NCBI GenBank assembly: GCA_964654045.1
Contig: CAZZHU010000007.1
Coordinates: 1 to 50,109 of the forward strand
Length of the DNA: 50,109 nucleotides
Direction of reading: 5' to 3'
Origin: an uncultured Leptospirales bacterium
GTDB taxonomy: Bacteria > Spirochaetota > UBA4802 > UBA5550
The position numbers were made by a program, and so were the translations under genes. The notes under the pieces were generated by a model that saw nothing but the letters and a program-made list of their open reading frames with translations, made no database searches and was not told the origin of the DNA. This document shows positions 5,654 to 48,542 of the stretch, piece after piece (the first letter of the stretch is position 1; each line of letters starts with the position of its first letter).

Positions 5654-5666
5654 GGTCCCCGTGTCC

Positions 5667-8500: not shown

Positions 8501-8567
8501 GGGCGGGGAGTCACACTTTTCTTTTGTCACCAAAAGAAAATTGTGCAAAAGAAAAGTGCCCCGCCTG
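8501..8567. repeat. long hairpin (GGCGGGG...CACTTTTCTTTTG / CAAAAGAAAAGTG-CCCCGCC)
   Basis: 13-bp perfect inverted repeat cacttttcttttg (8512-8524) / caaaagaaaagtg (8548-8560), extended by ggcgggg/ccccgcc. An inner alternative cttttg-tcac-caaaag hairpin is also possible. Confidence 0.55.
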
Positions 8568-8703: not shown

Positions 8704-9004
8704 GGTGAAGGCATTCTGCAATTTAATACCCTCGGCAAGGGAGGCGTAAATTAATAACCACCTGCAGTCTCTATGCCGCAGGTCCTCATAAATTTATATA
8801 CAAAACCAGTCGCCGGCCACGAGGCCCGGCGGTGCGAGGATGCCACAGGATGTGGCTTCCGGAGCAAAAGCCGACAGGTATTTCTTACATTCTTAAAAAA
8901 AACTAAACACCACAACGCGCTCTTATAAACAGATAACCCAAGAAATCACAAAATACATCAACATTTAGCCCCGCGGCGATGAGCGGCGCGGGTGGTGGGG
9001 GTCC

Positions 9005-9040
9005 GGGGGAGGAGGTGGCCGCGGTGCTACCTCCTCCCCC
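9005..9040. repeat. GC-rich hairpin (12-bp stem GGGGGAGGAGGT / ACCTCCTCCCCC, 12-nt loop)
   Basis: Read directly. No flanking U-run on either strand, so it is not a canonical terminator. Confidence 0.5.
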
Positions 9041-9176
9041 GAATACTTACCCGGCTGGGTCCCAGTCAAAAGTATGATGTTTTTTACATTATATATGAGG
9101 TAAAAAACTTGACACGGTATCTCGGTCTCCCCTGATAGAAGCGATTGAAATTGGAACATATGCTCAGGATACGCCC

Positions 9177-20504: not shown

Positions 20505-21381
20505 CGCTGTCCCCATCGTGCTCCTCGCGACAGCGGCAGTGTCTGTCTGCGCTGTTAATCTCCTGATGAACGCCGCACCCGCGCACATGGTCTTCACCCT
20601 TATCGGCATCGGGGCGTATGCAGCCCTGGTCCGGCTCGGCGATTACGATCCGCACCTGGTATGCGACACCGTCCAGAGCGGCGAAGCCGCGGTGGGGACC
20701 TTCATCCTGTACGTCGCGGCGTTGTTCATTACCGCGAACCCGTACCTGCTCATGGCCCTCACCTTCACGGCCCTCGTCCTGTACCAGATCTTCATGAAGG
20801 GGGTCCTTGCCCCGGTCAAGAAGGAGATTGCCCTCAGCGGAGCTGCGGCGCAGGGCATCCTCGCCGTCATAGCCCTGTTTATTGTCGCCGGCGGGGCGCC
20901 TCTCCGGATACCCCTGGCGGGGACGGTCTTCACCGGGTATTTCTCAGCCATCGAGGTCCCGGCCGCCATACCGGCGTCTTCGCTTGCGATCGCGGTGATC
21001 ATCCCCGTTATATTGAAGGCATTGAACCCGGAAATGCGGCTCCTGTCACAGGGACCGCCCTTCTCCCGGGGCACGCGCCGGTCCCGCGCCGGCGCCGCCG
21101 TTGGACTCATCGCGGCCCGCAGCCTTCTGGCGGCGGTTTCGCTCCTTTTTGCCGGATGGACCTGCGGCATCGGGATCAGCATGCGGCGCCTCCACCGGGG
21201 CGCGCTGCCGGACCCGGTCATGGTCCTTTCCCTGGTCTGTCTCGGGCAGATCGCGGTCCTGGTAGAAATTCTCTCCGGGCCCCTCCAGGCCGCAGCCGCT
21301 TCATGGGTCATATCATACGCGATTTTTTTCCTGTACTACAGCAGGAGGGTTCATTTATATGATCGATATCAGCAATCTTAG
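20464..21381 (+). CDS. polytopic membrane protein, diverged FecCD/BtuC-like ABC permease
   Basis: MRLLSQGPPFSRGTR...LFAGWTCGIGISMRRLHRGALPD parallels BtuC MNMLALGEISARQLG...[24 protein letters not shown] (by eye). Start is probably an internal Met (20476-20485). Overlaps neighbours at both ends, indicating an operon. Confidence 0.5.
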   Translation: MTRKMMTMRITRTDAVPIVLLATAAVSVCAVNLLMNAAPAHMVFTLIGIGAYAALVRLGDYDPHLVCDTVQSGEAAVGTFILYVAALFITANPYLLMALTFTALVLYQIFMKGVLAPVKKEIALSGAAAQGILAVIALFIVAGGAPLRIPLAGTVFTGYFSAIEVPAAIPASSLAIAVIIPVILKALNPEMRLLSQGPPFSRGTRRSRAGAAVGLIAARSLLAAVSLLFAGWTCGIGISMRRLHRGALPDPVMVLSLVCLGQIAVLVEILSGPLQAAAASWVISYAIFFLYYSRRVHLYDRYQQS

Positions 21382-27153: not shown

Positions 27154-27605
27154 ACGCTACCCAGATAAAAATCATGCGCTTTCCCCTCGAGGATTGATAC
27201 CAGTGTCTCGTTGACGGGAGGATAAATCCGCATCGAGGAAACCTCCTGCTTCCGGAAGAACCCGTAATCATGAAGGCGCCGTTCCCTGCCGATACGGTAT
27301 TCCCCGTCGCGGTGCTCGCAGCTGAACGATATATTCAGGATGTGCCGCTTCCCGCGGGGATCAATTGAATCGCACATGAATGCCGGCCTGCCGACGCTGA
27401 TGGCGACGCCCAGCTCCTCCCGGAATTCCCGGCAGAGCGCCTCTGACAGCGACTCGCCGCGCTGGACACCGCCCCCCGGGAGAAGCCAGTATGTTTCATC
27501 TTTTTTCCTGTGTTCAATCAGAAGCAGGGCATCGTCCCGCATGATTATGCCGGACACGCGGACCGTGACATTTTTCCTGAAAATATCAAATATCAATGTC
27601 CCCAT
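27141..27605 (-). CDS. NUDIX hydrolase
   Basis: Nudix box GGGVQRGESLSEALCREFREELGV. Confidence 0.85.
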   Translation of the reverse strand: MGTLIFDIFRKNVTVRVSGIIMRDDALLLIEHRKKDETYWLLPGGGVQRGESLSEALCREFREELGVAISVGRPAFMCDSIDPRGKRHILNISFSCEHRDGEYRIGRERRLHDYGFFRKQEVSSMRIYPPVNETLVSILEGKAHDFYLGSVWQS

Positions 27606-28344
27606 CCTCGATCTTCTTCAGCGATGCCCGTGCCGCGTTCATTTCGGCTTTCCGTTTGCTGGGCCCTTCACCGGTCATGATCTCCCTGCCGTTGACAACA
27701 AGCCTGACGGTAAATTCCTTCATGTGATCGGGGCCCCGTTCCTCGATTACCTGGTAGACGGGCCGCTCCTTGTATTTTTTCTGGACATACTCCTGCAGGG
27801 CGGTCTTGGGGTCGCGCAGGTAGGTGAGATTATTGACACTGTCAATCTCTTCGCGGAGAAGCGAAAGGACGAATTTCCGGCTCATCTTCAGCCCCGAGTC
27901 CAGGTAGAGGGCGCCGATTACGGCCTCCAGGGTGTTCGCCAGTATCGAGGACCGCTCCCGGCCCCCGCTGTGCTCCTCGCCCCTGCCCATGAGGATGAAC
28001 TCACCCAGGTTCATCTCCCGCGCGATTTTCGCAAGGGTCGCCTCGGAAACGACGGCGGACTTGATCTTTGCCAGCTTCCCTTCCCGGTAGTCCTCGAAAA
28101 CCTTGAACAGGTACTCGTTGACCACAAGCCCGAGGACCGAATCACCCAGGTACTCCAGGCGCTCATTGTCTTTGACTGTTCTTCCTGATTCGTTGACGAA
28201 GGAACGGTGGGTCAGTGCCCGTTGAAGAAGGCTCTTGTTCTTAAACTTGATGCGTAAGCTTTTTTGAAGCCGGTCAATATTCCTGTTTTCGATCTTCTTT
28301 TTTTTCCGGTGGTCTTCTATAGTATGGTTGCTTTCCCGTAACAT
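27586..28344 (-). CDS. rnc: ribonuclease III
   Basis: ERLEYLGDSVL catalytic signature and a C-terminal dsRBD. Start chosen at MLRESNH (28342-28344); the ORF-track start at 28395 would overlap acpP. Confidence 0.9.
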   Translation of the reverse strand: MLRESNHTIEDHRKKKKIENRNIDRLQKSLRIKFKNKSLLQRALTHRSFVNESGRTVKDNERLEYLGDSVLGLVVNEYLFKVFEDYREGKLAKIKSAVVSEATLAKIAREMNLGEFILMGRGEEHSGGRERSSILANTLEAVIGALYLDSGLKMSRKFVLSLLREEIDSVNNLTYLRDPKTALQEYVQKKYKERPVYQVIEERGPDHMKEFTVRLVVNGREIMTGEGPSKRKAEMNAARASLKKIEDGDIDI

Positions 28345-28373
28345 TCGATTCCATCGGCCCCTCGGTACGGAGC

Positions 28374-28619
28374 CTATTTCTGATTTCCGATGCACGATTC
28401 CAGATATTTGACTACATCGTCGACCTTCTGAAAACCCTCGGCATCCTTTTCAAGTATGTCCAGTTTGAATTCGGCCTCAAAGGCCATCACCAGCTCAACG
28501 GAATCGATTGAGTCGGCCCCGAGATCATCGACGAACACCGCGTCGCGCGTGATCTGCTCTTCATCCACGTTAAGCTGTTTCATAATGATCTTCTGCACCC
28601 GTTCAAACACAGTCGCCAT
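28374..28619 (-). CDS. acpP: acyl carrier protein
   Basis: 81 aa with LGADSIDSVELVMAFE (phosphopantetheine Ser). Confidence 0.9.
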   Translation of the reverse strand: MATVFERVQKIIMKQLNVDEEQITRDAVFVDDLGADSIDSVELVMAFEAEFKLDILEKDAEGFQKVDDVVKYLESCIGNQK

Positions 28620-28724
28620 GGTATTCCTCCCTGACTGATGAAAACCGGCATGAAAAAGGCGTCCGCCACCATGCTATTGTTATGGGGCAATATAAAATTG
28701 TCAAGCAATTGTGCAATGATATGC

Positions 28725-28766
28725 GTTTCTGTTAGGGTGGGGTTTAAACCCCACCCTAACAGAAAC
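28725..28766. repeat. perfect 42-bp palindrome between rpmF terminator and acpP promoter
   Basis: gtttctgttagggtggggttt|aaaccccaccctaacagaaac has 21-bp arms, no mismatches and a TTTAAA centre. It lies about 20 nt upstream of a TTGACA (reverse complement of 28699-28704) -35 candidate for acpP. Confidence 0.8.
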
Positions 28767-28769
28767 GAC

Positions 28770-28801
28770 AAAAAAAGGATGCCTGCCGGGCATCCTTTTT
28801 G
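28770..28801 (-). terminator. rho-independent terminator downstream of rpmF
   Basis: aaaaaaa-ggatgcc-tgccg-ggcatcc-ttttt. The minus strand reads the hairpin followed by TTTTTTT. Confidence 0.7.
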
Positions 28802-28822
28802 ATGATTTCGATACTCGAGATA

Positions 28823-29014
28823 TTATTCTTTTATCTTGACCTTCTTTTCAACAATAACTTCTCCCTTGTATGAACCGCACTCGGGGCATACCCGGTGGGG
28901 GAGCACATACGCGCCGCACCTCGGGCAGGGACGCAGATTGGGTGCCCCGATCGCATCATGCGATCTTCTCATTCTCGATTTAGACTTGGATTTTCTTCTC
29001 TTTGGTAATGCCAC
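28823..29014 (-). CDS. rpmF: 50S ribosomal protein L32
   Basis: [19 protein letters not shown] followed by the CPRCG...CPECG zinc ribbon. GTG start at 29012-29014 with ggag upstream. Confidence 0.9.
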
Positions 29015-29128
29015 GTTAAAACTCCATAATTACTATTTAATATGACGGCGCGGTATCAGGGATTCTCAATATTTTGCCGAAATTCTGTCAAGATATTTTT
29101 TTCTTTAAAATCCCCCGGCCCTCATCGA

Positions 29129-33346: not shown

Positions 33347-34396
33347 TTAGCTGCCGATCGGATACGAGCCGAGTATCTTGAGGAAAATCGTTTCTTCCTT
33401 CACCTTCTTCAGCGCCTTACGGACCGCCTCGTCTTCCGCGTGGCCCAGTATATCAATAAAAAAATTGTATTCCCACATCTTCTTTTTGTCGGGCCGCGAC
33501 TCGATCCTGGTCATGTTAATGCCGGCCTTGTTGAAAGGCCTGAGCAGATCCAGAAGTGCACCCGGCCTGTCCTTGACGGCGCAGACCAGGGAGGTCCTGT
33601 CGCGGCCGGTCGGTGCAACGGCCTTTTTCCCGATAAGGAAAAACCTGGTGTAATTCTGCCGGGAATCCTCGATCATCGAAGCGAGGGTGCCCAGCGTGTA
33701 TATCTCGCCTGCGAGCCCCGACGCGATGGCGGCGGCCCCCTCTTCCTGCGCCGCAATCTCTGCCGCGCGCGATGTGGAATCGACGCTCACGATCTCCGCG
33801 TGGGGGAGGTTTGCCCTGATCCACCCCTTGCACTGCCCCAGTGTCTGGGGGTGAGTATATATTTTTTTTACGGAGGATATCTCCCTGCTCCGTGACAGCA
33901 GACTGTAGGTTATGCGCACGTACTGCTCGGCCATGATCACCAGGCTCGTTTCCATGAGTTCGTCCATCGTGTAGGTGACCGCGCCCTCGGTGCTGTTTTC
34001 TATCGGCACGACGCCGTAGCCAGCCGCGCCGGACTCAACCTGGAGAAACACGTCCTGTATGGTACGCTGGGGAAGCGGCGTTATGGATTCGCCGAAGATC
34101 CCCTTGACGGCGATGGCGGTAAAGGTGCCCTCCGGTCCCAGAAAAGCGACATGGACCGGCGCAACGGCCGCCATGGATGCGGAGAGTATATCGGTATAGA
34201 TCCGCTTGATGGTGTCGCTGGCGAGGGGCCCGGCGTTGCATGATTCTATAAGGTCAAAAAGCCTGCTCCGGTCCTCCGCGGCAAAGTAATCGCCCTCCGG
34301 TCTTTTCCGGAGCCGCTGTATGTACAGCTCGGTCCTCCGCGATATCAGGTCGATGATCTCCCTGTCCATGTTCTCTATGTCGTCACGTTCCGCCAT
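33347..34396 (-). CDS. pheA: bifunctional chorismate mutase / prephenate dehydratase
   Basis: N-terminal CM_2 helix region, PDT domain (VAFLGPEGTFT) and ACT domain (TRIESRP...YNFFIDILGH). Confidence 0.9.
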   Translation of the reverse strand: MAERDDIENMDREIIDLISRRTELYIQRLRKRPEGDYFAAEDRSRLFDLIESCNAGPLASDTIKRIYTDILSASMAAVAPVHVAFLGPEGTFTAIAVKGIFGESITPLPQRTIQDVFLQVESGAAGYGVVPIENSTEGAVTYTMDELMETSLVIMAEQYVRITYSLLSRSREISSVKKIYTHPQTLGQCKGWIRANLPHAEIVSVDSTSRAAEIAAQEEGAAAIASGLAGEIYTLGTLASMIEDSRQNYTRFFLIGKKAVAPTGRDRTSLVCAVKDRPGALLDLLRPFNKAGINMTRIESRPDKKKMWEYNFFIDILGHAEDEAVRKALKKVKEETIFLKILGSYPIGS

Positions 34397-34397
34397 G

Positions 34398-35006
34398 CTA
34401 TTCGTCCCAGTTCAGGGAAAATTCCTTTATCTCCGAAAGCTTCGGAAGATCCGAGAGCTTGTTCAGCCCGAAATATCGTAAAAACTCATTGGTCGTTCCG
34501 TACGCCAGGGGCCGACCCGGCAGTTCTTTGCGCCCGACCGGCTTGACCAGTGTCCGCTCCATCAATTTCACCACCATCATGCGGGATGAGACCCCGCGGA
34601 GCTCGTCAATTTCGGCCAGTACGATGGGCTGCTTGTAGGCGATTATCGCCAGCGTTTCCAGCATGCCCTTGGAGAGGCCCTCCCGTTTCCTGACGCCGAT
34701 GACGCGCCGCAGCTGTTCCCCATACCGCTGGCTGGTGACGAACTGGTAGCCCTTGGCGATCTCCTGGAGCTTGATGCCGCCGTCGCGGTCCTCGTATTCG
34801 TCAACAAGCGAATCAAGGAGTATCTTTGCGTGGGTCGGTTCTATGGAAAAGCTGTTCACGAAGAATGACAGCGGCACCGGTTCGTTACTCAGGAAGAGCA
34901 CCGCCTCCAGCAGTCCTTTTATTGAATCATCATCCTTGTGGCTGTCATCCGGTTCGGATTCCCGGCCGTTCTTTTCGATGACATCATCTTGTATATTTTT
35001 TGCCAT
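34398..35006 (-). CDS. scpB: segregation and condensation protein B
   Basis: LEAVLFLSNEPVPL and GRPLAYGTTNEFLRYFGL motifs. Start at MAKNIQ (35004-35006). Confidence 0.85.
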   Translation of the reverse strand: MAKNIQDDVIEKNGRESEPDDSHKDDDSIKGLLEAVLFLSNEPVPLSFFVNSFSIEPTHAKILLDSLVDEYEDRDGGIKLQEIAKGYQFVTSQRYGEQLRRVIGVRKREGLSKGMLETLAIIAYKQPIVLAEIDELRGVSSRMMVVKLMERTLVKPVGRKELPGRPLAYGTTNEFLRYFGLNKLSDLPKLSEIKEFSLNWDE

Positions 35007-35054
35007 GCTACTGTTCCTTATCACGCGCGGTTCAATTATGGGACACCTCAAAAG

Positions 35055-35234
35055 CCCCTACATCCCCCGGAGGGGGACTTGTTTTTATCAACGAGCCCTG
35101 GAAGCCCCCCTATGGGGCCAACGCATTCGGCACATCCTGTGCCTGCGTTGGCATCAACCTCATCCTGAGAACGCGGGTTTGGGGGGTGTTCCGAGACGGC
35201 CTGTCCTTTCGCGCCCCCTCAGGGGGTCGGGGGG
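35055..35234. repeat. cluster of family A GC-rich palindromic modules between scpA and scpB
   Basis: cccctacatcccccggaggggg (35055-35076, +), cccccctatgggg (35105-35117), and tcgcgccccctcagggggtcgggggg (35209-35234). The reverse complement of the last closely matches the copy at 461-488. Confidence 0.65.
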
Positions 35235-35998
35235 ACCTCGGCCGCCACATGCTTCACGATGCGGATGATCCCGAATATCTTATGCTGCAGCAGCTTGATG
35301 ATCCGTGTCCTTGCCAGCTCCAGGATGGCCATAAAAGTCACCACGATCTCCATCCTTGACGGCTTCGCGGTAAAGATATCGGGAAAATGGATAACGTCCA
35401 TTTTCGAGAGCATGTTCCTGATGTGCTCAATCCTGTCGCTCACCAGTATCTCGTCAAACACAATTTCCTTCTCATCAACCGCCTTCTGCGACTCTATGAC
35501 CTCCGCGAAGGCCTTCAGCAGGTCGAAGAGCGAGACCTCCCCGAAATCATCTATTTCGATTATATCATCCAGCCTGTTTTCCCTGGTGTAGCGGTTCGCG
35601 CTGGATTCGAACTCTTCCATGAGCTTCCGGGAGGCATTCTGGAACTTCTTGAATTCCAGCAGCTTCTGCACCAGCTCCGGCGGCAGGGGAGGCACGAAAT
35701 ACTCATCCTCGATCTGGCCCGCCGGAAGGAGCGCGCAGCTTTTATAAAAAAGGAGCTCCGACGCCATCCGGATAAAATCGGTCGCGACGCGCACGTTCAG
35801 CTTTTCCATCAGCTTGAGGTAGCCCAGATACTGCTCGGTGATATGGGAAATGGTAATTTCAGTTATATCGATTTTGGCTTTTTTTATCAAATCCCACAGC
35901 AGATCGAGGGGGCCGTTAAAATTATCAATATGGATAATAGGGTTATTCTCAGGATTATCGCCTGATTCCGCTTCTATTTTTTCTTCTGTATCGCTCAT
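35219..35998 (-). CDS. scpA: segregation and condensation protein A
   Basis: FNGPLDLLWDLIKKAKIDITEITISHITEQYL. The last 8 codons (AAEVPPTP) and the TGA stop lie inside a family A repeat. Confidence 0.85.
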   Translation of the reverse strand: MSDTEEKIEAESGDNPENNPIIHIDNFNGPLDLLWDLIKKAKIDITEITISHITEQYLGYLKLMEKLNVRVATDFIRMASELLFYKSCALLPAGQIEDEYFVPPLPPELVQKLLEFKKFQNASRKLMEEFESSANRYTRENRLDDIIEIDDFGEVSLFDLLKAFAEVIESQKAVDEKEIVFDEILVSDRIEHIRNMLSKMDVIHFPDIFTAKPSRMEIVVTFMAILELARTRIIKLLQHKIFGIIRIVKHVAAEVPPTP

Positions 35999-36310: not shown

Positions 36311-36670
36311 TTAGGCGAGAGCCTTCTCGGCAGCTTTCTGGAGCCGTTCGGGCGGGAATGGTTTGACAACAAAGTCCCGTACTCCCAGTTTAATGGCCTT
36401 GGTAAGGAGATTTTCCTGTCCTAGCGCCGTTACCATGATAATCCGCGCGTTCGGATCCTGGCGAAGGATTTCTTCAGCGGCTTCGATCCCGTCCTTTTCA
36501 CGCATCGTGATATCCATGGTGACGAGATTGGGCTTCAGCCGCTTATATAATTCAATGGCCTCGTTTCCATTTTCAGCTTCGCCGATAATTTCATGCCCCG
36601 CCGGTACCAGCGCGTCCTTGACGAGGGTCCTCATGAATTTCGCATCATCTACTATTAAAATGGTCGCCAT
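36311..36670 (-). CDS. cheY: chemotaxis response regulator CheY
   Basis: 119-aa single receiver domain: ILIVDDAKFMR, LVTMDITM and VVKPF. Confidence 0.85.
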   Translation of the reverse strand: MATILIVDDAKFMRTLVKDALVPAGHEIIGEAENGNEAIELYKRLKPNLVTMDITMREKDGIEAAEEILRQDPNARIIMVTALGQENLLTKAIKLGVRDFVVKPFPPERLQKAAEKALA

Positions 36671-36940: not shown

Positions 36941-38014
36941 TTAAATATATTCAACAATTTTTTTTGGAATTTCAGATAAAGGGACAATATCATCGATACC
37001 GCCCTTTTCCACGGCAACGCGATTCATGCCATAGACAATGGAGGTTTCCTCGTTCTGGGCTATGGTTTTCCCTCCGGCTTCCCTGATCCTGGTTATGCCT
37101 TCCGCGCCATCGCGTCCCATCCCGGTCATTATGACTGCCACCGTGTTCCTGCCGGTGGTCGCCGCCATTGAGTCAAAAAGCACGTCAATCGAGGGCCGAT
37201 GCCCGCTGACCTTTTCTCCCTGAAAAACCCTGACATAGCGGTTGTTGTTTTTTTCTTCTATGGCGATGTGCTGGTTGCCCGGGGCAACATAGGCGCATCC
37301 GGGAAGGACCTGGTCCATATCCTGGGCTTCCTTTACCTTGAGCTGAGACATGGTATCAAGCCGTTCGGCAAAGGCCCTGGTAAAACCTTCCGGCATGTGC
37401 TGCACCACCAGTATCGACGAAGGAAAATTGGGCGGAATATTCGTGAACACCTGCATGAGGGCCGCCGGTCCGCCGGTCGACGTGCCGATCCCCACGATCC
37501 GCGAACTGGCGCTCTTCCTGTCAGCGGGAAAGGCGGGCTTTTTATCGGCTGCCGTGCCGGCCGCCTCCACGGCCGTTCTTTTTCTGAGCGGTGTTTCCCC
37601 GCTGTCTACCCTGGACTGGCTGACCGATTTGACCTTTGAGCGCAGCAGTTCGGCTATATCATTGATCGACAGGGAAACCATCGAAGACGGCTTGGGGATG
37701 AAATCGACCGCTCCGTATTCCAGCGCCTTGAAGGTCTCCTCGGCGCCGTGCTGCGTGAAAACGCTCAGCATGATGACCGGCTTTGGATTTGTTGATATTA
37801 TGGTCCGCAGGGCAGTAAGCCCGTCCATGACGGGCATCTCGATATCCATGGTAATGACGTCCGGGTTGAGCTCTTTCGTCAGCTTGACCGCCATCTCGCC
37901 GTTCTCGGCGGCGCCAACAACCTTGATCAGGGGGTCGCTCTCCAGACTTTCGGTAATGATTTTCCTTACCAGGGTCGAATCATCGACCACCAGTACCTTA
38001 ATTGGACCCGACAT
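36941..38014 (-). CDS. cheB: protein-glutamate methylesterase/deamidase CheB
   Basis: Receiver domain (VLVVDDS, TMDIEMP) plus methylesterase domain (GTSTGGPAAL, VVQHMP, GMGRDGA). Its start overlaps the cheA stop by 17 nt. Confidence 0.9.
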   Translation of the reverse strand: MSGPIKVLVVDDSTLVRKIITESLESDPLIKVVGAAENGEMAVKLTKELNPDVITMDIEMPVMDGLTALRTIISTNPKPVIMLSVFTQHGAEETFKALEYGAVDFIPKPSSMVSLSINDIAELLRSKVKSVSQSRVDSGETPLRKRTAVEAAGTAADKKPAFPADRKSASSRIVGIGTSTGGPAALMQVFTNIPPNFPSSILVVQHMPEGFTRAFAERLDTMSQLKVKEAQDMDQVLPGCAYVAPGNQHIAIEEKNNNRYVRVFQGEKVSGHRPSIDVLFDSMAATTGRNTVAVIMTGMGRDGAEGITRIREAGGKTIAQNEETSIVYGMNRVAVEKGGIDDIVPLSEIPKKIVEYI

Positions 38015-41000
38015 TAGACCTCATGCGCTCAACAATAATCTTAAGTGAATCGGACTCAGGAAGGAAAAGGAGGTTTCCGATGATCTTGTCATTCGCCAGA
38101 TAGAATGCCGTATCCATTATTACCGCGTAATCGCTCAGCATGTTATGAAGAACCAGGATCGAATCTATCACCGATTGCAGATAGTCGTGCACGATGGTGG
38201 GCAGGCCGGCACGAATGACCAGGTTCGATTTCTCGGCAATGACGTTGATAACTGAAGAACCAACGATATTTGTCAATTCCTGAAGTGCTGATTGACCGTC
38301 CTCGTTGAACTCATGGGTTGTTTTGGACGCGAGACCGTATAATAAATCTATCACCTCGAAACCGGTGTTTTCCTTGAATATGAACAGCACGGTTCCCCGG
38401 GTATCGCCGAGGATGGGCATCATGATGCCCATGTAGATGCTGTCGATATCGCCGATATGCTTGGGTATCTGCTCGATGGGCATGACCGTGACTTCCGGTA
38501 TCGAAAGGTCGATCTGCTTGTTCAGTATCTTTGAAAGGGACTCCGCGGCGTTGGCGGCCCCGATATTCGCAACGAGCTGGAATTCCCGCAATTCATCCTT
38601 GGTCAGAGAAATGGAATCAGCCATATGTTCCGACGGAAGACCGGTTTCCGCCGTTGACTTGATGCTCTCGCGCAGTTCATCCCTGAATTCATCAAGGGCC
38701 CTGTGTACCCTCAGCTCGATTTTGGCGTCGGATTCCGGGGCCCCTGCCTGCGGTTTACCCGGTTCCGGCTGCGAGAACGCCCGAACGACATTATCCGGCT
38801 TTTTCTCGACGAATTCCCGTGCCGCCGGTTCAGGTTTTTTCTCTTCCGCGGGCGCCGGTTTCTTCGCTTCAGCTGCCTTTGCCTCGGAGAAAAGTCTCAC
38901 GCCGGTCTTCTCCTTCTGCCCGACCGCGGGCGCCGCTTCGCGGACGGCAGGCCTGCCGACCGTCACCTTCGGCTGTATCTCTTCATCGGGTATCTCTTCC
39001 ACATCGGCTTCGTCCACTTCGACGATCCGCTTGTGGTCATACTTCGTTATCTTATCCTGCTCGAGGATAACCTTGTTTATCATCGAGGAAATATCCAGTA
39101 TCAGGCATATGCTGCCGTCGCCCAGGATCGAGGCCCCCGCGAGGCCCTCGACGGTCTTATAATTCTGCTCAAGGGACTTGATGACAATCTCCAGTTTTCC
39201 CTCGAGATAGTCGACGATGAGCCCTATCTTCCGGTTGCCGAACCCGACAACCACGACCGGCATCTTGTCGTCGGGGCCGAGGGCGCTTTCCTGTTTGACA
39301 AAGCGCGACAGGCGCAGCAGTGACAGGATCTCGCCCCTGAGGTTGATAACCTCATGGCCTTCAATGGTGGTTATGTCCGACTGCGAAATCTTTATGGTCT
39401 CGATAACGTCGGTAAGCGGTATCGCGTACATCTCGTTGCGCACCTTCACCATGATGGCGGGAATGATCGCCAGCGTTATGGGGAAGGAAAGGACGAAACG
39501 CGTCCCCATGCCCCACTCCGTCTCGATGGAGACTGAGCCGTTCAGTTCGCTCACGATCTCCTTCACGACGTTCATGCCGACGCCGCGTCCCGAAATGTCC
39601 GTTATCTTCTCGGCCGTGGAGAAACCGGGCATAAAAATATAATTATAGATATCCGTGTCGTCCATGGCGGCAATCATTTCCGGGGTCGCCAGCCCCGTGG
39701 CCACCGCCTTCCGCTTTATCTGGTCGAGGTTGAGCCCGCGGCCGTCATCGCTGACATCGACGAAGATCTGGTTGCCGCTCTGGTACGCGTTCATGGTGAT
39801 GTGGGCCATTTCCGATTTGCCCAGTTTTTTCCTCTCCCCGGCGGATTCAATGCCGTGGTCGACGGCGTTCCGCAGCAGGTGCAGAAGGGGTTCGCCGATG
39901 GAATCAATGACCTTCTTGTCGAGCTCGGTGTCCTCGCCCTTGATGGTGAGTTCCACCTCCTTGTTGAATTCCTTGGCAAGGTCCCTGACCAGCCGCCGGA
40001 ACCGGGTGAACACCTGGCCTATGGGAACCATCCTGGTTTTCATGATACCGCTTTGCAAATCCTTGGCGATGCGCGACATCTGCTCCATGCGGCTCTTGAA
40101 TTCGTTGATAATCGATTTTTCTTCGCTGATCTTCCGCATCTCTTCATACAGCTTGAAGAAGCCGGAGTTAGCGATGACCAGTTCCCCGACATTATTGAGC
40201 AGCAGGTCGAGTTTATCGATGGAGACCTTCACGGTCTTGAGCATCATGACTTTTTTCTTTCCGTCTTTATCGGCGCCCTTGCCGGCACCCGCTTCAACGT
40301 CAACCCCTTCCTCTTCGTCATCTTCATCTTCACCGGCATCATCGGCTTCTTCTATCCCGAAGGTCTCCCTGCCTGCAAGTGAGCCGCCTTCGGCCCGCAT
40401 TTCTCCCTGTTCGGGCTCGCCGGAATCACCGTAGAAGGATTCACTGTCGCTGAACTGAAGAACCAGCTTGTCGTCTTTCCGGTTCAAACGTATCGTCCGT
40501 ATATCAATCCGGTGTATCAGGTCTATGTTGGCGGTGCGCCGCAACTCCTCGCTGGACTGCTCCGTCAGGATGACTATTTTAACGACATTGTTCATCCCGT
40601 CATCGCTCATATCCTCCATGGAGGGAAACGTGGCCACGATGTCTCCCAACTTTCCCAGGTTGTTGACGACCAGCTGGGCCTTGACCCATTTCATCTGGGC
40701 CTTGTCGTCAATGAACACGGTCACCTCGCAGCAGGAATAACCTTTGTCCAGGCCGTCCTTTATCTGCCTGCGCATGCCGGCATCGAGCATCGTCTTGGGC
40801 ACCTCGTACTCATGCTGGCCGTCAGTGACGATCTCTTTTGCAGCCTTCTTTTCCCCTTTTTTCGGCCGCGTCGATTTATCGCAGATGGCCTTGATGTCGT
40901 CGATGAGCCACTGCAGGTCCTGTTCCGGTTTCTCGCCGGAGGCTATGGTGTCGATGACATTGTGTATCTCGTCGAAACACTTGAAGATGATGTCTATTAT

Positions 41001-41258
41001 TTCAGGAGTAATGCCCATGCTGCCGTCCCGGATGCCCTGAAGAAGGTTCTCCATCATGTGGGCAAGATCGCTGAGCTCGTTCAGGCCGACGAAAGCGGCC
41101 GAGCTTTTCAGCGAATGGGCGGCCCGGAAAATGTTGTTTATGATTTCGAGATTCTCCGGGTTTTTCTCCAGTTCCAGCAGGTTCTGGTTCAATTCCTGGA
41201 GCTGTTCGTCAGCTTCTTCGAGAAAGATATCCTGGTATTCGCCAAGAGAGAAAGCCAT
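37998..41258 (-). CDS. cheA: chemotaxis histidine kinase CheA with extra C-terminal CheC/CheX-like domain
   Basis: P1 Hpt (FRAAHSLKSSAAF), P2-like region, P3, P4 (HLLRNAVDHGIE, DDGRGL, GRGVGMNVV), P5 CheW-like domain, a Pro/Ala/Lys/Glu-rich linker, then about 200 aa with NIGAANAAESLSKIL and SALQELTN-x22-P. ATG at 41256-41258 is preceded by ggaga; the ORF-track TTG at 41279 is less likely. Confidence 0.9.
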   Translation of the reverse strand: MAFSLGEYQDIFLEEADEQLQELNQNLLELEKNPENLEIINNIFRAAHSLKSSAAFVGLNELSDLAHMMENLLQGIRDGSMGITPEIIDIIFKCFDEIHNVIDTIASGEKPEQDLQWLIDDIKAICDKSTRPKKGEKKAAKEIVTDGQHEYEVPKTMLDAGMRRQIKDGLDKGYSCCEVTVFIDDKAQMKWVKAQLVVNNLGKLGDIVATFPSMEDMSDDGMNNVVKIVILTEQSSEELRRTANIDLIHRIDIRTIRLNRKDDKLVLQFSDSESFYGDSGEPEQGEMRAEGGSLAGRETFGIEEADDAGEDEDDEEEGVDVEAGAGKGADKDGKKKVMMLKTVKVSIDKLDLLLNNVGELVIANSGFFKLYEEMRKISEEKSIINEFKSRMEQMSRIAKDLQSGIMKTRMVPIGQVFTRFRRLVRDLAKEFNKEVELTIKGEDTELDKKVIDSIGEPLLHLLRNAVDHGIESAGERKKLGKSEMAHITMNAYQSGNQIFVDVSDDGRGLNLDQIKRKAVATGLATPEMIAAMDDTDIYNYIFMPGFSTAEKITDISGRGVGMNVVKEIVSELNGSVSIETEWGMGTRFVLSFPITLAIIPAIMVKVRNEMYAIPLTDVIETIKISQSDITTIEGHEVINLRGEILSLLRLSRFVKQESALGPDDKMPVVVVGFGNRKIGLIVDYLEGKLEIVIKSLEQNYKTVEGLAGASILGDGSICLILDISSMINKVILEQDKITKYDHKRIVEVDEADVEEIPDEEIQPKVTVGRPAVREAAPAVGQKEKTGVRLFSEAKAAEAKKPAPAEEKKPEPAAREFVEKKPDNVVRAFSQPEPGKPQAGAPESDAKIELRVHRALDEFRDELRESIKSTAETGLPSEHMADSISLTKDELREFQLVANIGAANAAESLSKILNKQIDLSIPEVTVMPIEQIPKHIGDIDSIYMGIMMPILGDTRGTVLFIFKENTGFEVIDLLYGLASKTTHEFNEDGQSALQELTNIVGSSVINVIAEKSNLVIRAGLPTIVHDYLQSVIDSILVLHNMLSDYAVIMDTAFYLANDKIIGNLLFLPESDSLKIIVERMRSNVGSN

Positions 41259-41398
41259 AATCGGTCTCCACGATTTCAATTAACAGGCCGCTATCGATAC
41301 ATTGCCTGGCACCGGTACCGCGATCACCGCGTCACCGGTAAAAACGAGCGGCGTCTGGAAGCCATCTTCATGGTGTCCCAAACCCGGACACTACTGCA

Positions 41399-41926
41399 TC
41401 ACTTCTGCTCTGTGTCTTCTTCGAGGAAAAGGATATTCGACAGATTCAGTATGACTATCAATCGGTCCTTCAACCTTCCAATGCCCCATATATACTCTTC
41501 CGACACTCCCTCGATCAACTCGGAAGGAGGATCGATATTATTCCGCGAAATCCTGACAACCTGGTGAACGTTATCAACCATCAATCCCGTCAGCTTATCG
41601 CTCGTCTCTATAACGATAATGCGGGTCAGGTCCGTGATCCTTGCCCGGGAAAAGCCGAACCTCTTCCGGACGTCAACCACGGGGATCACGTTGCCCCTCA
41701 GGTTGATGACCCCCTTGATGAAATCAGGAGTATTCGGCAGGCGGGTAATTTCCGGAAACCGCAGGATCTCATGAACCGCAAGGATATCCACCCCGTATTC
41801 CACATCTTCAAGAACGAAACTTACCAGCTGAATGATGGAGCCCTCGGAAATAAACTCCTCTTCCTCTTCACCGGATATTTTAACATTCAACTGTTCCTGC
41901 TTGTCTATCAGTTCATTCAGATCCAT
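41399..41926 (-). CDS. cheW: chemotaxis coupling protein CheW
   Basis: VSFVLEDVEYGVDILAVHEILRFPEITRLPNTPDFIKGVINLRGNVIPVVDVRKRFG. Confidence 0.9.
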   Translation of the reverse strand: MDLNELIDKQEQLNVKISGEEEEEFISEGSIIQLVSFVLEDVEYGVDILAVHEILRFPEITRLPNTPDFIKGVINLRGNVIPVVDVRKRFGFSRARITDLTRIIVIETSDKLTGLMVDNVHQVVRISRNNIDPPSELIEGVSEEYIWGIGRLKDRLIVILNLSNILFLEEDTEQK

Positions 41927-41967
41927 ATGGGTTTTCCTGATATTTATGATATGCCCTTAAACAATTT

Positions 41968-41995
41968 AGTGTAAAATAAAAGCCGTACTTTTCAA
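41968..41995 (-). promoter_or_regulatory. sigma70-like promoter candidate TTGAAA-N16-TACACT upstream of cheW
   Basis: Reverse complement of tttcaa (41990-41995) and agtgta (41968-41973). Confidence 0.3.
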
Positions 41996-42068: not shown

Positions 42069-44024
42069 TCACTTTTTAAGACTGGAGAGTCTCTTTTTAC
42101 CTGTCTCGAAATAAATATGCCCCTTTGACACGACCACATTGCTCGAGGTAATCCGCGGCAGCAGAAGGGACCAGGTTACGTCGCCGGTCATTTTATCCAC
42201 GACAAACAGGGTCTCGCTGGCCGGCACGTAGAAACTTGCGGCATCTTCCGAAGGCCTCTGCATAATGGGAATGCCGATATCGCGGCTCCAGACCAGATCC
42301 CCCCCGTCGCTGATCCGGTGGATCCGCCCGCTCCGCCCGAAAAGATACACGGAATGTCCGGTAACGGCCATGTCGCACGCGATGGCGTCATTGACCTGGT
42401 ATTCCCACAGCATTTCATCGTCACCGTAATTATAGCAGTACAAACGGCCCGCGTCGGTGGCAATGTAAATCTCACGATTCCCGGCCGCTATTGAAACGAT
42501 GCTTCCGCGGATACTGACCCTGATGACCTTCAAACCGCTGGACTTGTCAAACCCGAAGAGGCTCCCCTTCCGGGTCGAGATAAAAACAAGATTGTCCGCT
42601 ATCACGGGCACCGTTGAAATGATCTCGTCCGTCTTCACGCTCCACACTACCCCGCCGCCACGGTCGATCTTGCACAGTGTCCCCCCTGATGTCGCGCAAT
42701 AGATCCCGCTGCCGTCAAGCTTCAGGGTGGCACTCCCGGTCCTTCCGCCCGGGATCCGGACGCGCCATCGTGTCCCGCCGGTTAACAGATCAAACCTGGA
42801 GATACTGTCCGTGCCTGCGGCAATATAAAGCGACATTTCTTCATGAACGGGATAAGACAGAATCGGGACGTCAAGCGGCACGGACCATTGCACATTATTG
42901 GACCGGATTGACATCAGTCGCCCGTTGCCGATCTTGATGACGCTGTCCAGAACGGGAATATACATGAGGAACACGTTGCCGGGACCGGGCGCGGCATCGC
43001 GCCCCGCTGACGGCTTCATCCGCGCGTCCCGCCCGGCGGCGTCGAATTTCACGCCGCTGCCGGATGAAGATTTGACCAGGCGGTCCATATCATCCCGCAT
43101 TACCGTCATGCCCCGGACCGGCACCGGCAGTTTCAGCGTCGCCATAACGCGGACCGCCTCCATTCCGGTAATGGATTCCAGCTGGACAGGATCAACACCG
43201 ATCGCGCATGCCTGGTCCCGCGACACTTCAAGGGCATGGTCCCGGAAGTACCGGTCAAGGACCTTCGCGGTCTCCGTGTCCGCCGGCATATCCGCCGGCA
43301 GGCATCTCCTCACGCGCACCCTTCCCTCGTAAACTTCGAAGCGGACTCCGCCCCTGCCGTCAACCATGACGCCGAACCTGGTGCCCCGCACGACGGCAAC
43401 GGACGCGGGCGTATGGACTGAAACCGAATCCCCGCGCCCCAGCCTGCTCACGTCCAGGACGCAACCGCCGCCGGTCACCAGGGCATCGAAAACCCGCTCG
43501 CGGCCGTTCAGTGTAATGGTCCGGAGCGCGACCCGGCTGCCGCCGAGGATCCGCATCCGCAATAAATTCGTGAATTGTATTTCGGCTGAAGAACCGGCCC
43601 CGGCGACAACCACGTCGCCGCCGGACACGGGATCGCCGGCCCGCAGGACCCGCTCGCCCCCGCCGCGGCTCACCGTCACATCGCCTGAAACAATACCGGC
43701 GGAGCCGGAGCGTCCGGCGCGCATGAAGTCCAGCGTGCCCGTCAGGACCAGGACGATGATCGACGCGGCGACACCGGCCGGGACCAGCGCCCACCGGGCC
43801 TTTTTCGGTATCCGGGCCGCCGCGCGGGCGCGCTGCGACAGGGAACGGCGCCGCCCTGCCATGACCCGCGGATCGAGGGCAATCCCCGGCCACGATTCGG
43901 GAACGTTCAGCTCGGCGCATTCCAGGATGCGGGCCAGCTTCGCGTGATGGATCTCCCGGTACCGCCTTTTCGAGCGGAGAGCCTCAAGCGCGTCTCTCAT
44001 GTCAGGTCCCTCTTTCATCATCAT
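42069..44024 (-). CDS. putative anti-sigma factor: N-terminal cytoplasmic segment, TM helix, FecR-like domain and PQQ/BamB-like beta-propeller repeats
   Basis: Immediately downstream of the ECF sigma gene. TM helix WALVPAGVAASIIVLVLTG. GDVTVSRGG...LRAGDPVSGGDVVVAGAGSSAEIQF is FecR-like. The C-terminal half has repeated W-containing beta-strand units (VQWSV, TRWRV, VVWSV, MLWEY, LVWSR, VTWSL). Confidence 0.6.
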   Translation of the reverse strand: MMMKEGPDMRDALEALRSKRRYREIHHAKLARILECAELNVPESWPGIALDPRVMAGRRRSLSQRARAAARIPKKARWALVPAGVAASIIVLVLTGTLDFMRAGRSGSAGIVSGDVTVSRGGGERVLRAGDPVSGGDVVVAGAGSSAEIQFTNLLRMRILGGSRVALRTITLNGRERVFDALVTGGGCVLDVSRLGRGDSVSVHTPASVAVVRGTRFGVMVDGRGGVRFEVYEGRVRVRRCLPADMPADTETAKVLDRYFRDHALEVSRDQACAIGVDPVQLESITGMEAVRVMATLKLPVPVRGMTVMRDDMDRLVKSSSGSGVKFDAAGRDARMKPSAGRDAAPGPGNVFLMYIPVLDSVIKIGNGRLMSIRSNNVQWSVPLDVPILSYPVHEEMSLYIAAGTDSISRFDLLTGGTRWRVRIPGGRTGSATLKLDGSGIYCATSGGTLCKIDRGGGVVWSVKTDEIISTVPVIADNLVFISTRKGSLFGFDKSSGLKVIRVSIRGSIVSIAAGNREIYIATDAGRLYCYNYGDDEMLWEYQVNDAIACDMAVTGHSVYLFGRSGRIHRISDGGDLVWSRDIGIPIMQRPSEDAASFYVPASETLFVVDKMTGDVTWSLLLPRITSSNVVVSKGHIYFETGKKRLSSLKK

Positions 44025-44033: not shown

Positions 44034-44603
44034 TCAGAGAACTCCCTTCTCCGATAAATAGTGCGCTATTTTCTCCAGCGCCTTCTCCATCCGCCATTTT
44101 GCCGTCCGCTCGGAACAGTTCATGATAGCGGCTATTTCAGAATATTTCATCCTGTGGTCATGCCTCAATATGAACACCGTTTTGAATTTATCCTTCAGGT
44201 TTTCAACCGAGCGGCTCAATTCCTCCAGGTCATGCTCCGTTATGCATATATCCTCGGGCGATTCCTGCTGCTGGCGCCCGCCGGCCATCCTGTAGCGTTC
44301 CTGCTCCATCAGCCGGATCTCCCGCCCCCTTTTGCCGATGAAATTCTTGCTGCAATTGACCGCAATCTGGTAAATCCACGAGGAAAAGGATTTCCTCACA
44401 TCGAATGTTTCAATATGCCTGAATACCCGTATGACGGCATCCTGGAGCACATCGTTCGCTTCGTCGACATTGGGAATATAGTAGTAGATAAGGCGCTTGA
44501 GCTTCTGTTCATACCGGCCGTATAACTCGGTAAAGGCATGTTCGTTTCCGGCCTTATACGCCAGCACAAGCTCCTCGTCGGTAAACAGCTTTAAATCCTG
44601 CAT
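44034..44603 (-). CDS. ECF-type RNA polymerase sigma-70 family factor
   Basis: Region 2 (FTELYGRYEQKL...DVLQDAVIRVFRHIETFD...SWIYQIAVN) and region 4 HTH (MKYSEIAAIMNCSERTAKWRMEKA). Confidence 0.85.
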   Translation of the reverse strand: MQDLKLFTDEELVLAYKAGNEHAFTELYGRYEQKLKRLIYYYIPNVDEANDVLQDAVIRVFRHIETFDVRKSFSSWIYQIAVNCSKNFIGKRGREIRLMEQERYRMAGGRQQQESPEDICITEHDLEELSRSVENLKDKFKTVFILRHDHRMKYSEIAAIMNCSERTAKWRMEKALEKIAHYLSEKGVL

Positions 44604-46258: not shown

Positions 46259-47179
46259 CTATATCTGCATGCTCATTTCAATACCGTAGATGGCCTGGAT
46301 GAAATTATGCTGCGACGCCCGGAGCGGATTCTGCACCGTATAGACCCCCAGGTACAGGGCCTCCATGAAAAAATACCGGAGCCCGGCGCTCATTAAAAAG
46401 GTGTTATACCGGGCGGCCTCGATGGGGACATCGCCGGTATTGATATAATCACCGGTGACCCTGACTGACCCGTTACACTCAATGTACGGCACGAAGGGAT
46501 AAAAATAATTCGTATTCCACGCCATTGAGAAGGTCAGGTAATCATTCTTGATCCTGTCAATGTTCAGGAATGTATTTTTCGCCTTCGGGTTCAGGCCAAA
46601 CACCTTCTCCCACGTTTCACTTTTTGTTATGTTCAGGTAGAAGCCGCCCCAGAAGTCCTCCGCGTTGCCTTCGCGGAAGGTGTAGAACATGTTCAGGTGG
46701 ATGAAAAAAACGTCCAGGACATCAAAGCGGAAGAAGGGCCCCATCTTCAATTCATACTTGCCCAGGGCGAGATTACGCCATTCTTCGTTGGCATAGGCGT
46801 TCTTGGCCAGCGGGAACCGCAGGCTTATCAGGAAGCCCAGGTGAACCTGATTGCGGGCGAAATCGCCGATATAGAATTTTCCCTTAATAAAAAGGTCGCC
46901 TATATCCGCCCTGTTTATCCTGAAGGCGCTCTGGCTCAGGATATCAAAGTTGAGCCAGAGGGAAAATTCATCTGTCGCGCCGAATCCCAGGCCGATGCTG
47001 TCCTTTCTGGACCAGCGGTCGGTCTGACACACCTCATCGCGGAGATAAATCTCGACGGCATACTCCGGGACCATGTAGATCGTTTCGGTGAGCGGCAGGG
47101 CATCGGCCCTGTTCACGGCGGTCAGAAACAGAATTAGCGCTATACCGATAGCGCTAACCTTCTGTTTCATGAGAATCAT
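46259..47179 (-). CDS. secreted, probably beta-barrel outer-membrane-like hypothetical protein
   Basis: Start at MILMKQKVSAIGIALILFLTAVNRADA (signal peptide; 47177-47179 or 47168-47170). Aromatic-rich alternating pattern. The ORF-track N-terminal extension overlaps rplT and is rejected. Confidence 0.55.
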   Translation of the reverse strand: MILMKQKVSAIGIALILFLTAVNRADALPLTETIYMVPEYAVEIYLRDEVCQTDRWSRKDSIGLGFGATDEFSLWLNFDILSQSAFRINRADIGDLFIKGKFYIGDFARNQVHLGFLISLRFPLAKNAYANEEWRNLALGKYELKMGPFFRFDVLDVFFIHLNMFYTFREGNAEDFWGGFYLNITKSETWEKVFGLNPKAKNTFLNIDRIKNDYLTFSMAWNTNYFYPFVPYIECNGSVRVTGDYINTGDVPIEAARYNTFLMSAGLRYFFMEALYLGVYTVQNPLRASQHNFIQAIYGIEMSMQI

Positions 47180-47199
47180 GGCGGGATTTGCTGCTGCGG

Positions 47200-47556
47200 C
47201 TATGCCGCCGTTTCCTTTACCTTGTCGACTATTTGCTGAAACGCGGTCATATCCTTCGCGGCCAGTTCGGCCAGCATTTTCCGGTTGATCTCGATGTTGG
47301 ACGATTTCAGGCCGGCTATGAATTTGCTGTATGATATGCCGCACAGCCTGGCCGCGGCGGCAATCCGAATGATCCACAGCGCCCTGAAGTCACGCTTCTT
47401 TTTCCGCCGGTCGATGAAGGAATTCTGCAGGGCCCGTCTCCGGGCGTCCTTCGCTGTCCGGAAAATGGTGCTCCGGGCGCCGATAAATCCCTTGGCGTCC
47501 TTTAATATTTTTTTGCTTCGCTTGCGATGCACTCTACCAGTTGTTGCTCTCGGCAT
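47200..47556 (-). CDS. rplT: 50S ribosomal protein L20
   Basis: MPRATTGRVHRKRSKKILKDAKGFIGARS...RRKKKRDFRALWIIRIAAAAR. Confidence 0.92.
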   Translation of the reverse strand: MPRATTGRVHRKRSKKILKDAKGFIGARSTIFRTAKDARRRALQNSFIDRRKKKRDFRALWIIRIAAAARLCGISYSKFIAGLKSSNIEINRKMLAELAAKDMTAFQQIVDKVKETAA

Positions 47557-47690: not shown

Positions 47691-47882
47691 TTATAAGGAA
47701 TCATCCTCTTGATCCGCTTGGTCTCGGTCGCTCGTAACCGTTGTTCCGCGGAGCTGCCGCTTGCGTTTCGATGATTTTGACTCCAGCAGATGGCTTTTAA
47801 AGCCCTGCGCGCGGACGGCTTTCCCTTTTTTGGTTATGCGGAACCTTTTTTTAGCTCCGCTGTTTGATTTCACCTTTGGCAT
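47691..47882 (-). CDS. rpmI: 50S ribosomal protein L35
   Basis: MPKVKSNSGAKKRFRITKKGKAVRAQGFKSHLL. Confidence 0.9.
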   Translation of the reverse strand: MPKVKSNSGAKKRFRITKKGKAVRAQGFKSHLLESKSSKRKRQLRGTTVTSDRDQADQEDDSL

Positions 47883-47904
47883 CTCGCTACCCCTTGTGCG
47901 GTTA

Positions 47905-48462
47905 TTATTTCGTTTTGACTCCGCTCACCTTGGCGGAAACAATCATCGTTATATTTCTTCCTTCCTGCGACATGTCCTTTTCTATCTGGACGAAACTCTC
48001 TATCTGCTCCTTCACCTTTTTCATGACATCGAACCCGAGTTCGGGGTGGACCATCTCCCGGCCCCTGAACATGAGGGTGAATTTCACCTTGTCTCCACCA
48101 TCCAGAAATTCTTTCGCGTGCTTAATCTTGTGTTCAAAATCGTGCGAATCTATGTTCGGCCGCATTTTGATCTCTTTAACATGGATGACTTTCTGCTTTT
48201 TCTTGGCCTCCTTGGCCTTTTTCAGCTGCTCGAACTTGAACTTGCTGTAGTCAATGATCTTCACAACCGGCGGGTCCTGGTTCGGGGAAATCTCCACGAG
48301 ATCAAGCTCCCTCTCTCTTGCCATCTTCAGTGCGTCTTCGGTCGGTACGACCTTTGGTTCTCCCTCCTCCCCGACGAGCCTGACCTGCTGCGATTTTATA
48401 CCCTCGTTGACATTGTACTTATCAAACTTATCCAAGTTGGATCGTCTTCCTTTGTCTATCAA
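47905..48462 (-). CDS. infC: translation initiation factor IF-3 (non-ATG start)
   Basis: INEGIKSQQVRLVGEEGE...ARERELDLVEISPNQDPPVVKIIDYSKFKFE. An in-frame TAA lies 2 codons upstream of the TTG (48460-48462), with ATA as the next codon. The first in-frame ATG is far inside the conserved N-domain. Confidence 0.9.
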   Translation of the reverse strand: MIDKGRRSNLDKFDKYNVNEGIKSQQVRLVGEEGEPKVVPTEDALKMARERELDLVEISPNQDPPVVKIIDYSKFKFEQLKKAKEAKKKQKVIHVKEIKMRPNIDSHDFEHKIKHAKEFLDGGDKVKFTLMFRGREMVHPELGFDVMKKVKEQIESFVQIEKDMSQEGRNITMIVSAKVSGVKTK

Positions 48463-48542
48463 GCGTTAAACACCCCCTGAATGATTGTTATAATATGCGA
48501 CCCGATGTTACCTGCCTCTTTTATATCGTATGATATTTAAGA

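Follow-up and report, generated by a model that had tools for sequence, protein, structure and literature searches.

CheA kinases that carry a phosphatase domain for phosphorylated CheY (CheY-P) on the same chain have been described before. CheC/CheX domains fused to F1 CheAs were recorded in Leptospirae, with a dual kinase/phosphatase role being proposed for them, and a table of archaeal proteins in the same study includes CheAs ending in CheW,CheC, e.g. from Methanospirillum (Berry, Andrianova and Zhulin 2023, Microbiol Spectr, PMC10782961). Here, we have analysed a 50,109-nucleotide (nt) stretch of DNA from an uncultured Leptospirales bacterium (assembly GCA_964654045.1, contig CAZZHU010000007.1, positions 1 to 50,109; hereafter the window), which holds a cheA::cheC fusion gene. 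The encoded protein shares with the published fusions the Hpt-P2-dimerization-HATPase-CheW-CheC architecture and the phylum, and apparently also the class, since its relatives are labelled Leptospirales or Spirochaetota metagenome-assembled genomes (MAGs). An earlier, sequence-only reading of the window had regarded this architecture as novel. However, both the architecture and the dual-function hypothesis were already in print in 2023, and the present analysis is a confirmation with added detail, not a discovery. The published account consists of one domain-census paragraph, in which the single active site, the linker, the selection, the synteny, the link to CheD and a split relative are not described. 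No experimental study of any CheA-CheC fusion was found in the literature.

Spirochaetes use CheX as a CheY-P phosphatase. CheX (Borrelia burgdorferi and Thermotoga maritima; 3HZH, 1XKO) belongs to the same superfamily as CheC (Pfam clan CL0355) and has one site per chain, like the fused CheC, but it is a single-repeat protein of ~155 amino acids (aa), whereas the fused CheC has two repeats and 200 aa. The CheC of T. maritima and Bacillus subtilis (1XKR; 2F9Z, the latter being T. maritima CheC in the CheC-CheD complex) has the same fold, length, topology and second-repeat consensus as the domain studied here, which has also kept the Asp of the CheD interface. That CheC is, however, a stand-alone protein of 200 aa with two intact sites, while the present domain is attached to CheA and has lost the Glu of its first site. 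Rhodobacter sphaeroides CheA3 is also alike, as a single CheA-family polypeptide that makes and destroys the CheY-P signal. It is reported to be an experimentally characterised bifunctional kinase-phosphatase (Porter et al. 2008 PNAS, cited in PMC10782961), is not known to have a CheC-like domain and has its phosphatase activity in a different region. In Escherichia coli, the CheZ phosphatase sits at the kinase, bound to short CheA at the receptor cluster (PMC2673030 and PMC1447658); the principle of placing the phosphatase at the kinase is the same, but the fold is unrelated and the association through short CheA is non-covalent.

Domain layout and identity of the fusion protein

The fusion gene and its parts are listed below with their window coordinates, strand and supporting match (E, expectation value). 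Residue numbers of the fusion protein follow the 1093-aa numbering that begins at the TTG start.

37998..41279, (-): cheA::cheC open reading frame (ORF) from the first TTG at 41279, 1093 aa
37998..41258, (-): cheA::cheC fusion gene from the conserved ATG, 1086 aa
40944..41237, (-): P1 (Hpt), residues 15-112; Pfam Hpt, E 2.8e-19
40497..40727, (-): P2 CheY-binding domain, residues 185-261; Pfam P2, E 2.6e-14
40035..40238, (-): P3 dimerization, residues 348-415; Pfam H-kinase_dim, E 3e-17
39477..39890, (-): P4 ATP-binding kinase domain, residues 464-601; Pfam HATPase_c, E 1.3e-17
39072..39455, (-): P5 CheW-like receptor-coupling domain, residues 609-736; Pfam CheW, E 7.9e-29
38730..39023, (-): hypervariable Pro/Ala/Lys/Glu-rich linker, approximately residues 753-850, ~100 aa, probably disordered
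38601..38729, (-): conserved pre-CheC segment, residues 851-893 (~43 aa; DAKIELRVHRALDEFRDELRESIKSTA...), predicted helical
38001..38600, (-): CheC domain, residues 894-1093, two pseudo-symmetric alpha/beta repeats
38496..38588, (-): degenerate first-half site R-x3-L-x2-N-x22-P, by direct reading
38199..38291, (-): intact second-half motif S-ALQ-E-LT-N-x22-P, by translation

The likely start of the protein is the ATG located 7 codons into the ORF (MAFSLGEY, 41258), which is common to all orthologs. Counted from this ATG, the phospho-accepting His of P1 is His48, lying within AAHSLKSSAAF in the translation. All five CheA domains exceeded the Pfam cutoffs, placing the protein among the CheA histidine kinases, and the CheA part is complete from P1 to P5 and apparently an active kinase. 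Three points lend indirect support to a probable assignment to class F1 of the Wuichet-Zhulin / MiST scheme: among the NCBIfam CheA models the archaeal one matches best, CheC occurs together with CheD, and such fusions are placed in F1 by PMC10782961.

Between the kinase and the CheC domain, an alignment of 12 orthologs showed a linker that varies in length and cannot be aligned, with a column conservation of 0.19-0.40 and many in-frame indels that are always multiples of three. It is followed by the pre-CheC segment, which is conserved across all orthologs. AlphaFold2 placed helices at residues 8-34 and 39-46 of its model, with a predicted local distance difference test score (pLDDT) of 50-79. 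The pre-CheC segment has no counterpart among stand-alone CheC structures.

The Pfam CheC model PF04509 recognised the tail with 44.5 bits in the full protein (two stretches) and with 49.5 bits when the tail was searched alone, against a cutoff of 22. Positions 5-199 of the 201 in the NCBIfam model NF041093 (Thermotogales CheC) matched residues 894-1086 with E 2e-33; the score of 116-120 bits is under the 250-bit equivalog cutoff, so the domain is a homolog and not an equivalog. A profile search of the PDB with the tail and its relatives retrieved T. maritima CheC (1XKR, residues 2-202) with E 1.3e-24, as well as 2F9Z, with CheX reaching only E 0.03. The AlphaFold2 model of the tail (pLDDT 77, predicted template modelling score, pTM, 0.70) displayed a duplicated helix-strand topology, and Foldseek gave 1XKR as its best match (template modelling score, TM, 0.81; E 1e-17), followed among the PDB entries by a Haloarcula CheC-like protein, FliY, and then FliM and CheX. 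With E values of 1e-24 for the PDB CheC and 1e-17 in Foldseek, the match to CheC is far beyond chance.

Two related families were considered and rejected as the identity of the tail. For CheX, the Pfam model PF13690 scored 22.9 bits against the whole protein and 28.9 bits against the tail alone (cutoff 27), and the CheX structures reached a query-normalised TM of only 0.45-0.49 against the tail model; given the two repeats and 200 aa, the E of 0.03 in the PDB search and the far better agreement with CheC in both sequence and fold, this identity was discarded. For FliY, in which a CheC-like middle domain is combined with an N-terminal CheY-binding peptide and a C-terminal FliN domain, the FliN domain is absent here and the FliY models matched partially, far below cutoff.

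The window segment 38199-38291 (-) translates to SALQELTNIVGSSVINVIAEKSNLVIRAGLP, an exact fit to the S-x3-E-x2-N-x22-P consensus of the second repeat. Its Ser, Glu (E1001), Asn (N1004) and Pro do not vary among the relatives, even at 29% identity. In the first half, the sequence is REFQLVAN-x22-P, with the Asn and the Pro retained and the catalytic Glu replaced by Leu; no relative has a Glu at this position, which is always Leu, Ile or Val. The first repeat thus departs from the canonical two-site pattern of CheC, which is still compatible with membership of the family, CheX having only one site. By its profile matches and predicted fold, then, the tail is a complete CheC of two repeats, only the second of which has kept its catalytic motif, and it would most likely dephosphorylate CheY-P.

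Much of what the sequence-only reading had proposed for this protein was borne out. A complete CheA and a CheC-family domain do lie on one polypeptide, with P1-P5 and PF04509 all above their cutoffs. Both the search of the tail with the CheC model and the structural comparison with T. maritima CheC came out in its favour, the second-half motif occupies exactly the positions that it had given, and the Glu of the first half (LVAN) has been lost. Its linker of roughly 130 aa was close to the ~100 hypervariable and ~43 conserved residues found here. Its single active site "as in CheX" was right as to the one intact site; the domain bearing it is, however, a two-repeat CheC.

Proposed phosphatase and CheD roles of the tethered CheC

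We favour, with fair confidence, the reading that this is a genuine single-polypeptide CheA whose C-terminal CheC likely serves as a local CheY-P phosphatase and probably binds CheD too. CheA enters the chemoreceptor array through P5. Hence, a CheC joined to CheA by a presumably flexible linker of ~100 aa and a short helical segment would be held within a few nanometres of the site of CheY-P synthesis. There, the Glu and Asn site of the second repeat most likely binds CheY-P and would speed its hydrolysis, the CheY encoded in the same operon being the likely substrate. Such an arrangement would be the covalent counterpart of the co-localisation of CheZ with short CheA in E. coli. The tethered CheC would probably also bind CheD in a CheY-P-dependent manner, and this capture of CheD would feed the kinase output back to the receptors, like the CheC/CheD/CheY-P adaptation of B. 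subtilis.

When CheD was used to seed a scan, at least 9 of the 13 clade genomes proved to hold cheD in the assembly that carries the fusion; L048 4001-4480 is one example of a clade cheD. In DAONAJ01, the closest relative, cheD is paired with cheR, and no further cheA or cheC lies beside them. The GGARMF of this CheD aligns with the GGASMF of T. maritima CheD from the CheC-CheD crystal complex, and the Met-Phe pair of CheD is conserved only in CheC-containing species (PMC3513319). CheC of the Bacillus/Thermotoga type binds CheD through the helix behind its second motif. In the fused-CheC family, an invariant Asp (D1032) lies five residues past the Pro of that motif, within PTIVHD in the window protein and PQLVID in 1XKR; via the alignment to T. 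maritima CheC, it is the equivalent of B. subtilis D149, which contacts CheD (PMC3513319). Since the clade CheD keeps its contact residues and the CheC keeps this Asp, the residues themselves suggest that CheD is probably bound by the tethered CheC. In the relative L020, cheD comes immediately after the fusion, followed by cheB, a separate cheX and cheY; in this order, the fusion takes the place of cheC in a cheA-cheC-cheD series, and L020 has a dedicated CheX besides. The tethered CheC is thus plausibly both a local CheY-P phosphatase and a partner of CheD.

Several points weigh against this interpretation. No published biochemistry was found in the literature for any member of the fusion family. 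Stand-alone B. subtilis CheC is weak, with 6% of FliY activity (PMC3513319), and, with one of the two sites dead as well, catalysis could be marginal. L020 carries a separate cheX, and a phosphatase tethered beside the kinase risks a futile cycle. Moreover, the mapping of D149 runs through the alignment to T. maritima CheC and not through a structure of the fusion protein.

A possible, if somewhat doubtful, alternative is that the domain is chiefly an adaptation module. CheC would then capture CheD at high CheY-P, off the neighbouring receptors, which would lower kinase activity; its phosphatase activity would be minor, and a CheX or FliY encoded elsewhere would be the real phosphatase. This would agree with the CheC-contact Met-Phe of the clade CheD, with the invariant CheD-contact Asp of the CheC domain, with the presence of cheD and a separate cheX near the fusion in L020, and with the dead catalytic site in every member. 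In B. subtilis, the CheD binding of CheC far outweighs its weak phosphatase activity (PMC3513319). However, a domain with no need for catalysis would hardly have kept the second-motif Ser, Glu, Asn and Pro unchanged down to 29% identity, unless these residues are required for binding CheY-P, and cheD lies outside the operon in most lineages. With its CheD partner, the tethered CheC may act mainly in CheD-dependent adaptation and not as the main phosphatase. For the sequence-only reading, which had put the kinase and a CheY-P phosphatase on one chain, this means that the single polypeptide stands, while phosphatase activity may not be its main role in view of PMC3513319 and the clade CheD. A bolder idea, which we consider unlikely, is that the fusion hard-wires a Bacillus-type CheC/CheD/CheY-P loop into the array, with CheY-P sensed in cis, CheD captured from adjacent receptors and feedback operating per core unit, not cell-wide.

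It is very unlikely that the CheC domain is catalytically inert, i.e. a FliM-like module that binds CheY-P or acts as a scaffold, retaining CheY-P near the array or mediating array contacts. Its fold does resemble the FliM middle domains (Foldseek TM 0.72-0.77), a weak Pfam FliM match exists (E 0.0012-0.024) and the first site is dead. FliM, however, is without the Glu/Asn motif, the second motif is here complete and invariant, and the catalytic CheCs are the best matches in sequence and fold, well ahead of FliM.

The fusion frame in relatives and a species with separate genes

The reading of a genuine single polypeptide was examined across related genomes. The fusion occupies a single uninterrupted frame of 1042-1104 aa in 11 of the 13 GTDB species-representative genomes, these being independent assemblies of different species obtained with various assemblers (SPAdes, MEGAHIT and others), and the divergent lineages L020, L022, L023 and L024 are single-frame fusions as well. 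The ratios of nonsynonymous to synonymous substitution rates (dN/dS, Nei-Gojobori, against six orthologs) were 0.018-0.066 for the CheC domain, 0.066-0.105 for P1-P5 and 0.11-0.75 for the linker (residues 753-860). With values lower than those of both P1-P5 and the linker, the CheC domain is the most constrained region of the protein and is under the strongest purifying selection. Inside the gene, no conserved start codon was found from which CheC could be made on its own, the Met at residue 886 being Ile in some orthologs, and the window linker has neither slippery heptamers nor long homopolymers.

Separate cheA and cheC genes were called in the relatives L001 (830 aa and 266 aa, in overlapping frames), L002 and L004. 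The last two lie on long-read-style contigs, with most genes broken by frameshifts in L002 and with the break inside the HATPase domain in L004. In L001 the DAHP synthase is also split, and runs of C5 and A6 lie at the junction. The tail has 23 close homologs in the databases, none of them outside 130-360 aa in length and nearly all named 'CheC'. Such short hits were rejected as separate genes, being cut by contig ends, located on indel-rich long-read contigs or flagged 'partial' by NCBI. Hence, the idea that a missed stop, a frameshift or a chimeric assembly merged separate cheA and cheC genes, which the sequence-only reading had named as its own refutation, has a negligible probability: the separate calls in L001, L002 and L004, the short 'CheC' hits and the existence of one truly split species would fit it, but the 11 single-frame assemblies together with L020 and L022-L024, the damaged state of the three split calls, the truncation or flagging of the short hits and the linker indels in multiples of three all argue against it.

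In public protein collections, the family is found mostly as fragments named 'chemotaxis protein CheC' (contig ends, long-read frameshifts). With mostly fragments deposited, a protein-level search hides the fusion, and DNA-level inspection alone revealed it.

The truly split arrangement was seen in one related species, where cheA, cheC and cheB are separate genes in the same order (five assemblies, L025-L029, of three strains 98-99% identical). Its cheA codes for 741 aa (46% identical to the window P1-P5) and is separated by a 104-nt gap from the gene of a 273-aa CheC homolog (36% identical), in which the second motif is intact and the first degenerate. The junction is identical in the five assemblies, which come from five samples. 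The Rosetta-stone fusion suspected from the window thus has its separate counterpart; the true partner is, however, a separate cheC and not the cheX that had been proposed.

In L025 (4256-4490), the cheA stop lies 15 nt past an A10 run, read in frame as GAA-AAA-AAA-AAG. This run contains the dnaX-type heptamer A_AAA_AAG, and the cheC frame has no stop over the 130 nt that precede the end of cheA. A -1 slip (or an A11 transcript) would thus recreate a CheA-CheC fusion, and such a slip at A_AAA_AAG in L025-L029 could determine how much plain CheA is made relative to CheA-CheC. We treat this slippage only as a lead, because the hairpin present downstream of the slippery site in L025 is not significant (z = -0.68), slippery heptamers also turn up now and then by chance at other places in these Lys-rich genes, and a single species is concerned, no second species with the split and slippery arrangement having been found.

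Distribution, operon and neighbourhood

An exhaustive phmmer search against 1.84 billion representatives returned 2852 CheC-like proteins; in nearly all of the best 19 of these (E < 1e-30), the domain is C-terminal in a longer protein. The full P1-P5 and CheC architecture was present in five divergent clusters (P0025, P0032, P0033, P0042 and P0068). The named members come from Spirochaetota or Leptospirales MAGs, with L020 being labelled Spirochaetia, and a neighbour-joining tree suggests that P0068/L020 stands apart from the main fused clade.

Other architectures were also seen among the CheC-like proteins. P0035 (644 aa) and P0039 (640 aa) consist of Hpt, dimerization and HATPase_c domains followed by CheC, with the second CheC motif intact and with neither P2 nor the CheW-like P5; without P5, the usual docking to the receptor array is not expected. 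Scans seeded with P0035 and P0036 yielded no relatives at the species level. CheW is followed by tandem CheC domains in P0126 (676 aa) and P0161 (658 aa) and by a single CheC in P0153 (464 aa), four CBS domains precede CheC in P0062 (454 aa), and P0109 (279 aa) combines a Pfam CBS match with a CheC-like region matched by phmmer only. These varied partners point to several routes by which CheC has been recruited to array or sensor modules.

In the window, the fusion gene is accompanied by the following operon features:

41946..41975, (-): best sigma-70-like promoter match, TTTACA-18-TATCAT, 10/12, just upstream of cheW; a consensus match only
41399..41926, (-): cheW, first gene of the operon; Pfam CheW, E 7e-39; syntenic in relatives
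36941..38014, (-): cheB (REC and methylesterase); Pfam CheB_methylest, E 5e-67
36311..36670, (-): cheY, 119 aa; Pfam Response_reg, E 4e-28

The start of cheB overlaps the final 17 nt of cheA::cheC, and the translated cheY has the residues D8, D9, D53, T81 and K103. The order cheW-cheA::cheC-cheB-cheY persists in relatives with as little as 31% tail identity, and scpA-scpB often come next. No cheD, cheR, cheX or methyl-accepting chemotaxis protein (MCP) genes were found within the 50-kb window, nor were Rfam families or tRNAs.

Downstream of cheY, the window carries scpA, scpB and pheA (PDT-ACT) at 33347-35998 (-), an order shared by most relatives (L001, L016, L017, L022 and L023); the synteny between the che operon and these chromosome-segregation genes is unusually stable. 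Directly upstream of cheW are the genes of a probable anti-sigma factor, a protein with FecR and a PQQ-like beta-propeller (42069-44024, (-)), and of an extracytoplasmic function (ECF) sigma factor (44034-44603, (-)). The ECF/FecR pair occupies the same position in L001, L002 and L024, its adjacency to the che operon thus being conserved. The L020 locus (1-9364) has the order MCP, REC-SpoIIE(PP2C)-HATPase_c_2 protein, cheW, cheA::cheC, cheD, cheB, cheX, cheY. A SpoIIE-domain protein of 691 aa is also encoded in the window, at 2465-4540 (+), distant from the che operon. Elsewhere in the window, ORFs of 239-372 aa without a Pfam match at E 1e-5 are found at 1250-2278 (+), 20464-21381 (+), 27340-28188 (+), 46259-47377 (-) and 47761-48480 (+), and the ~940 nt of 28189-29128 contain no ORF of at least 90 aa and no Rfam or tRNA match.

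The CheA-CheC system is now described well enough for direct testing with a small set of recombinant proteins. A kinase and a phosphatase covalently paired at the array would be a natural experiment on the long-discussed principle that placing source and sink together flattens intracellular CheY-P gradients. Spirochaetes, being long and thin and having motors at either end of the cell, are where this could count most. The link to CheD suggests an alternative, in which adaptation feedback would be wired locally, per signalling unit.

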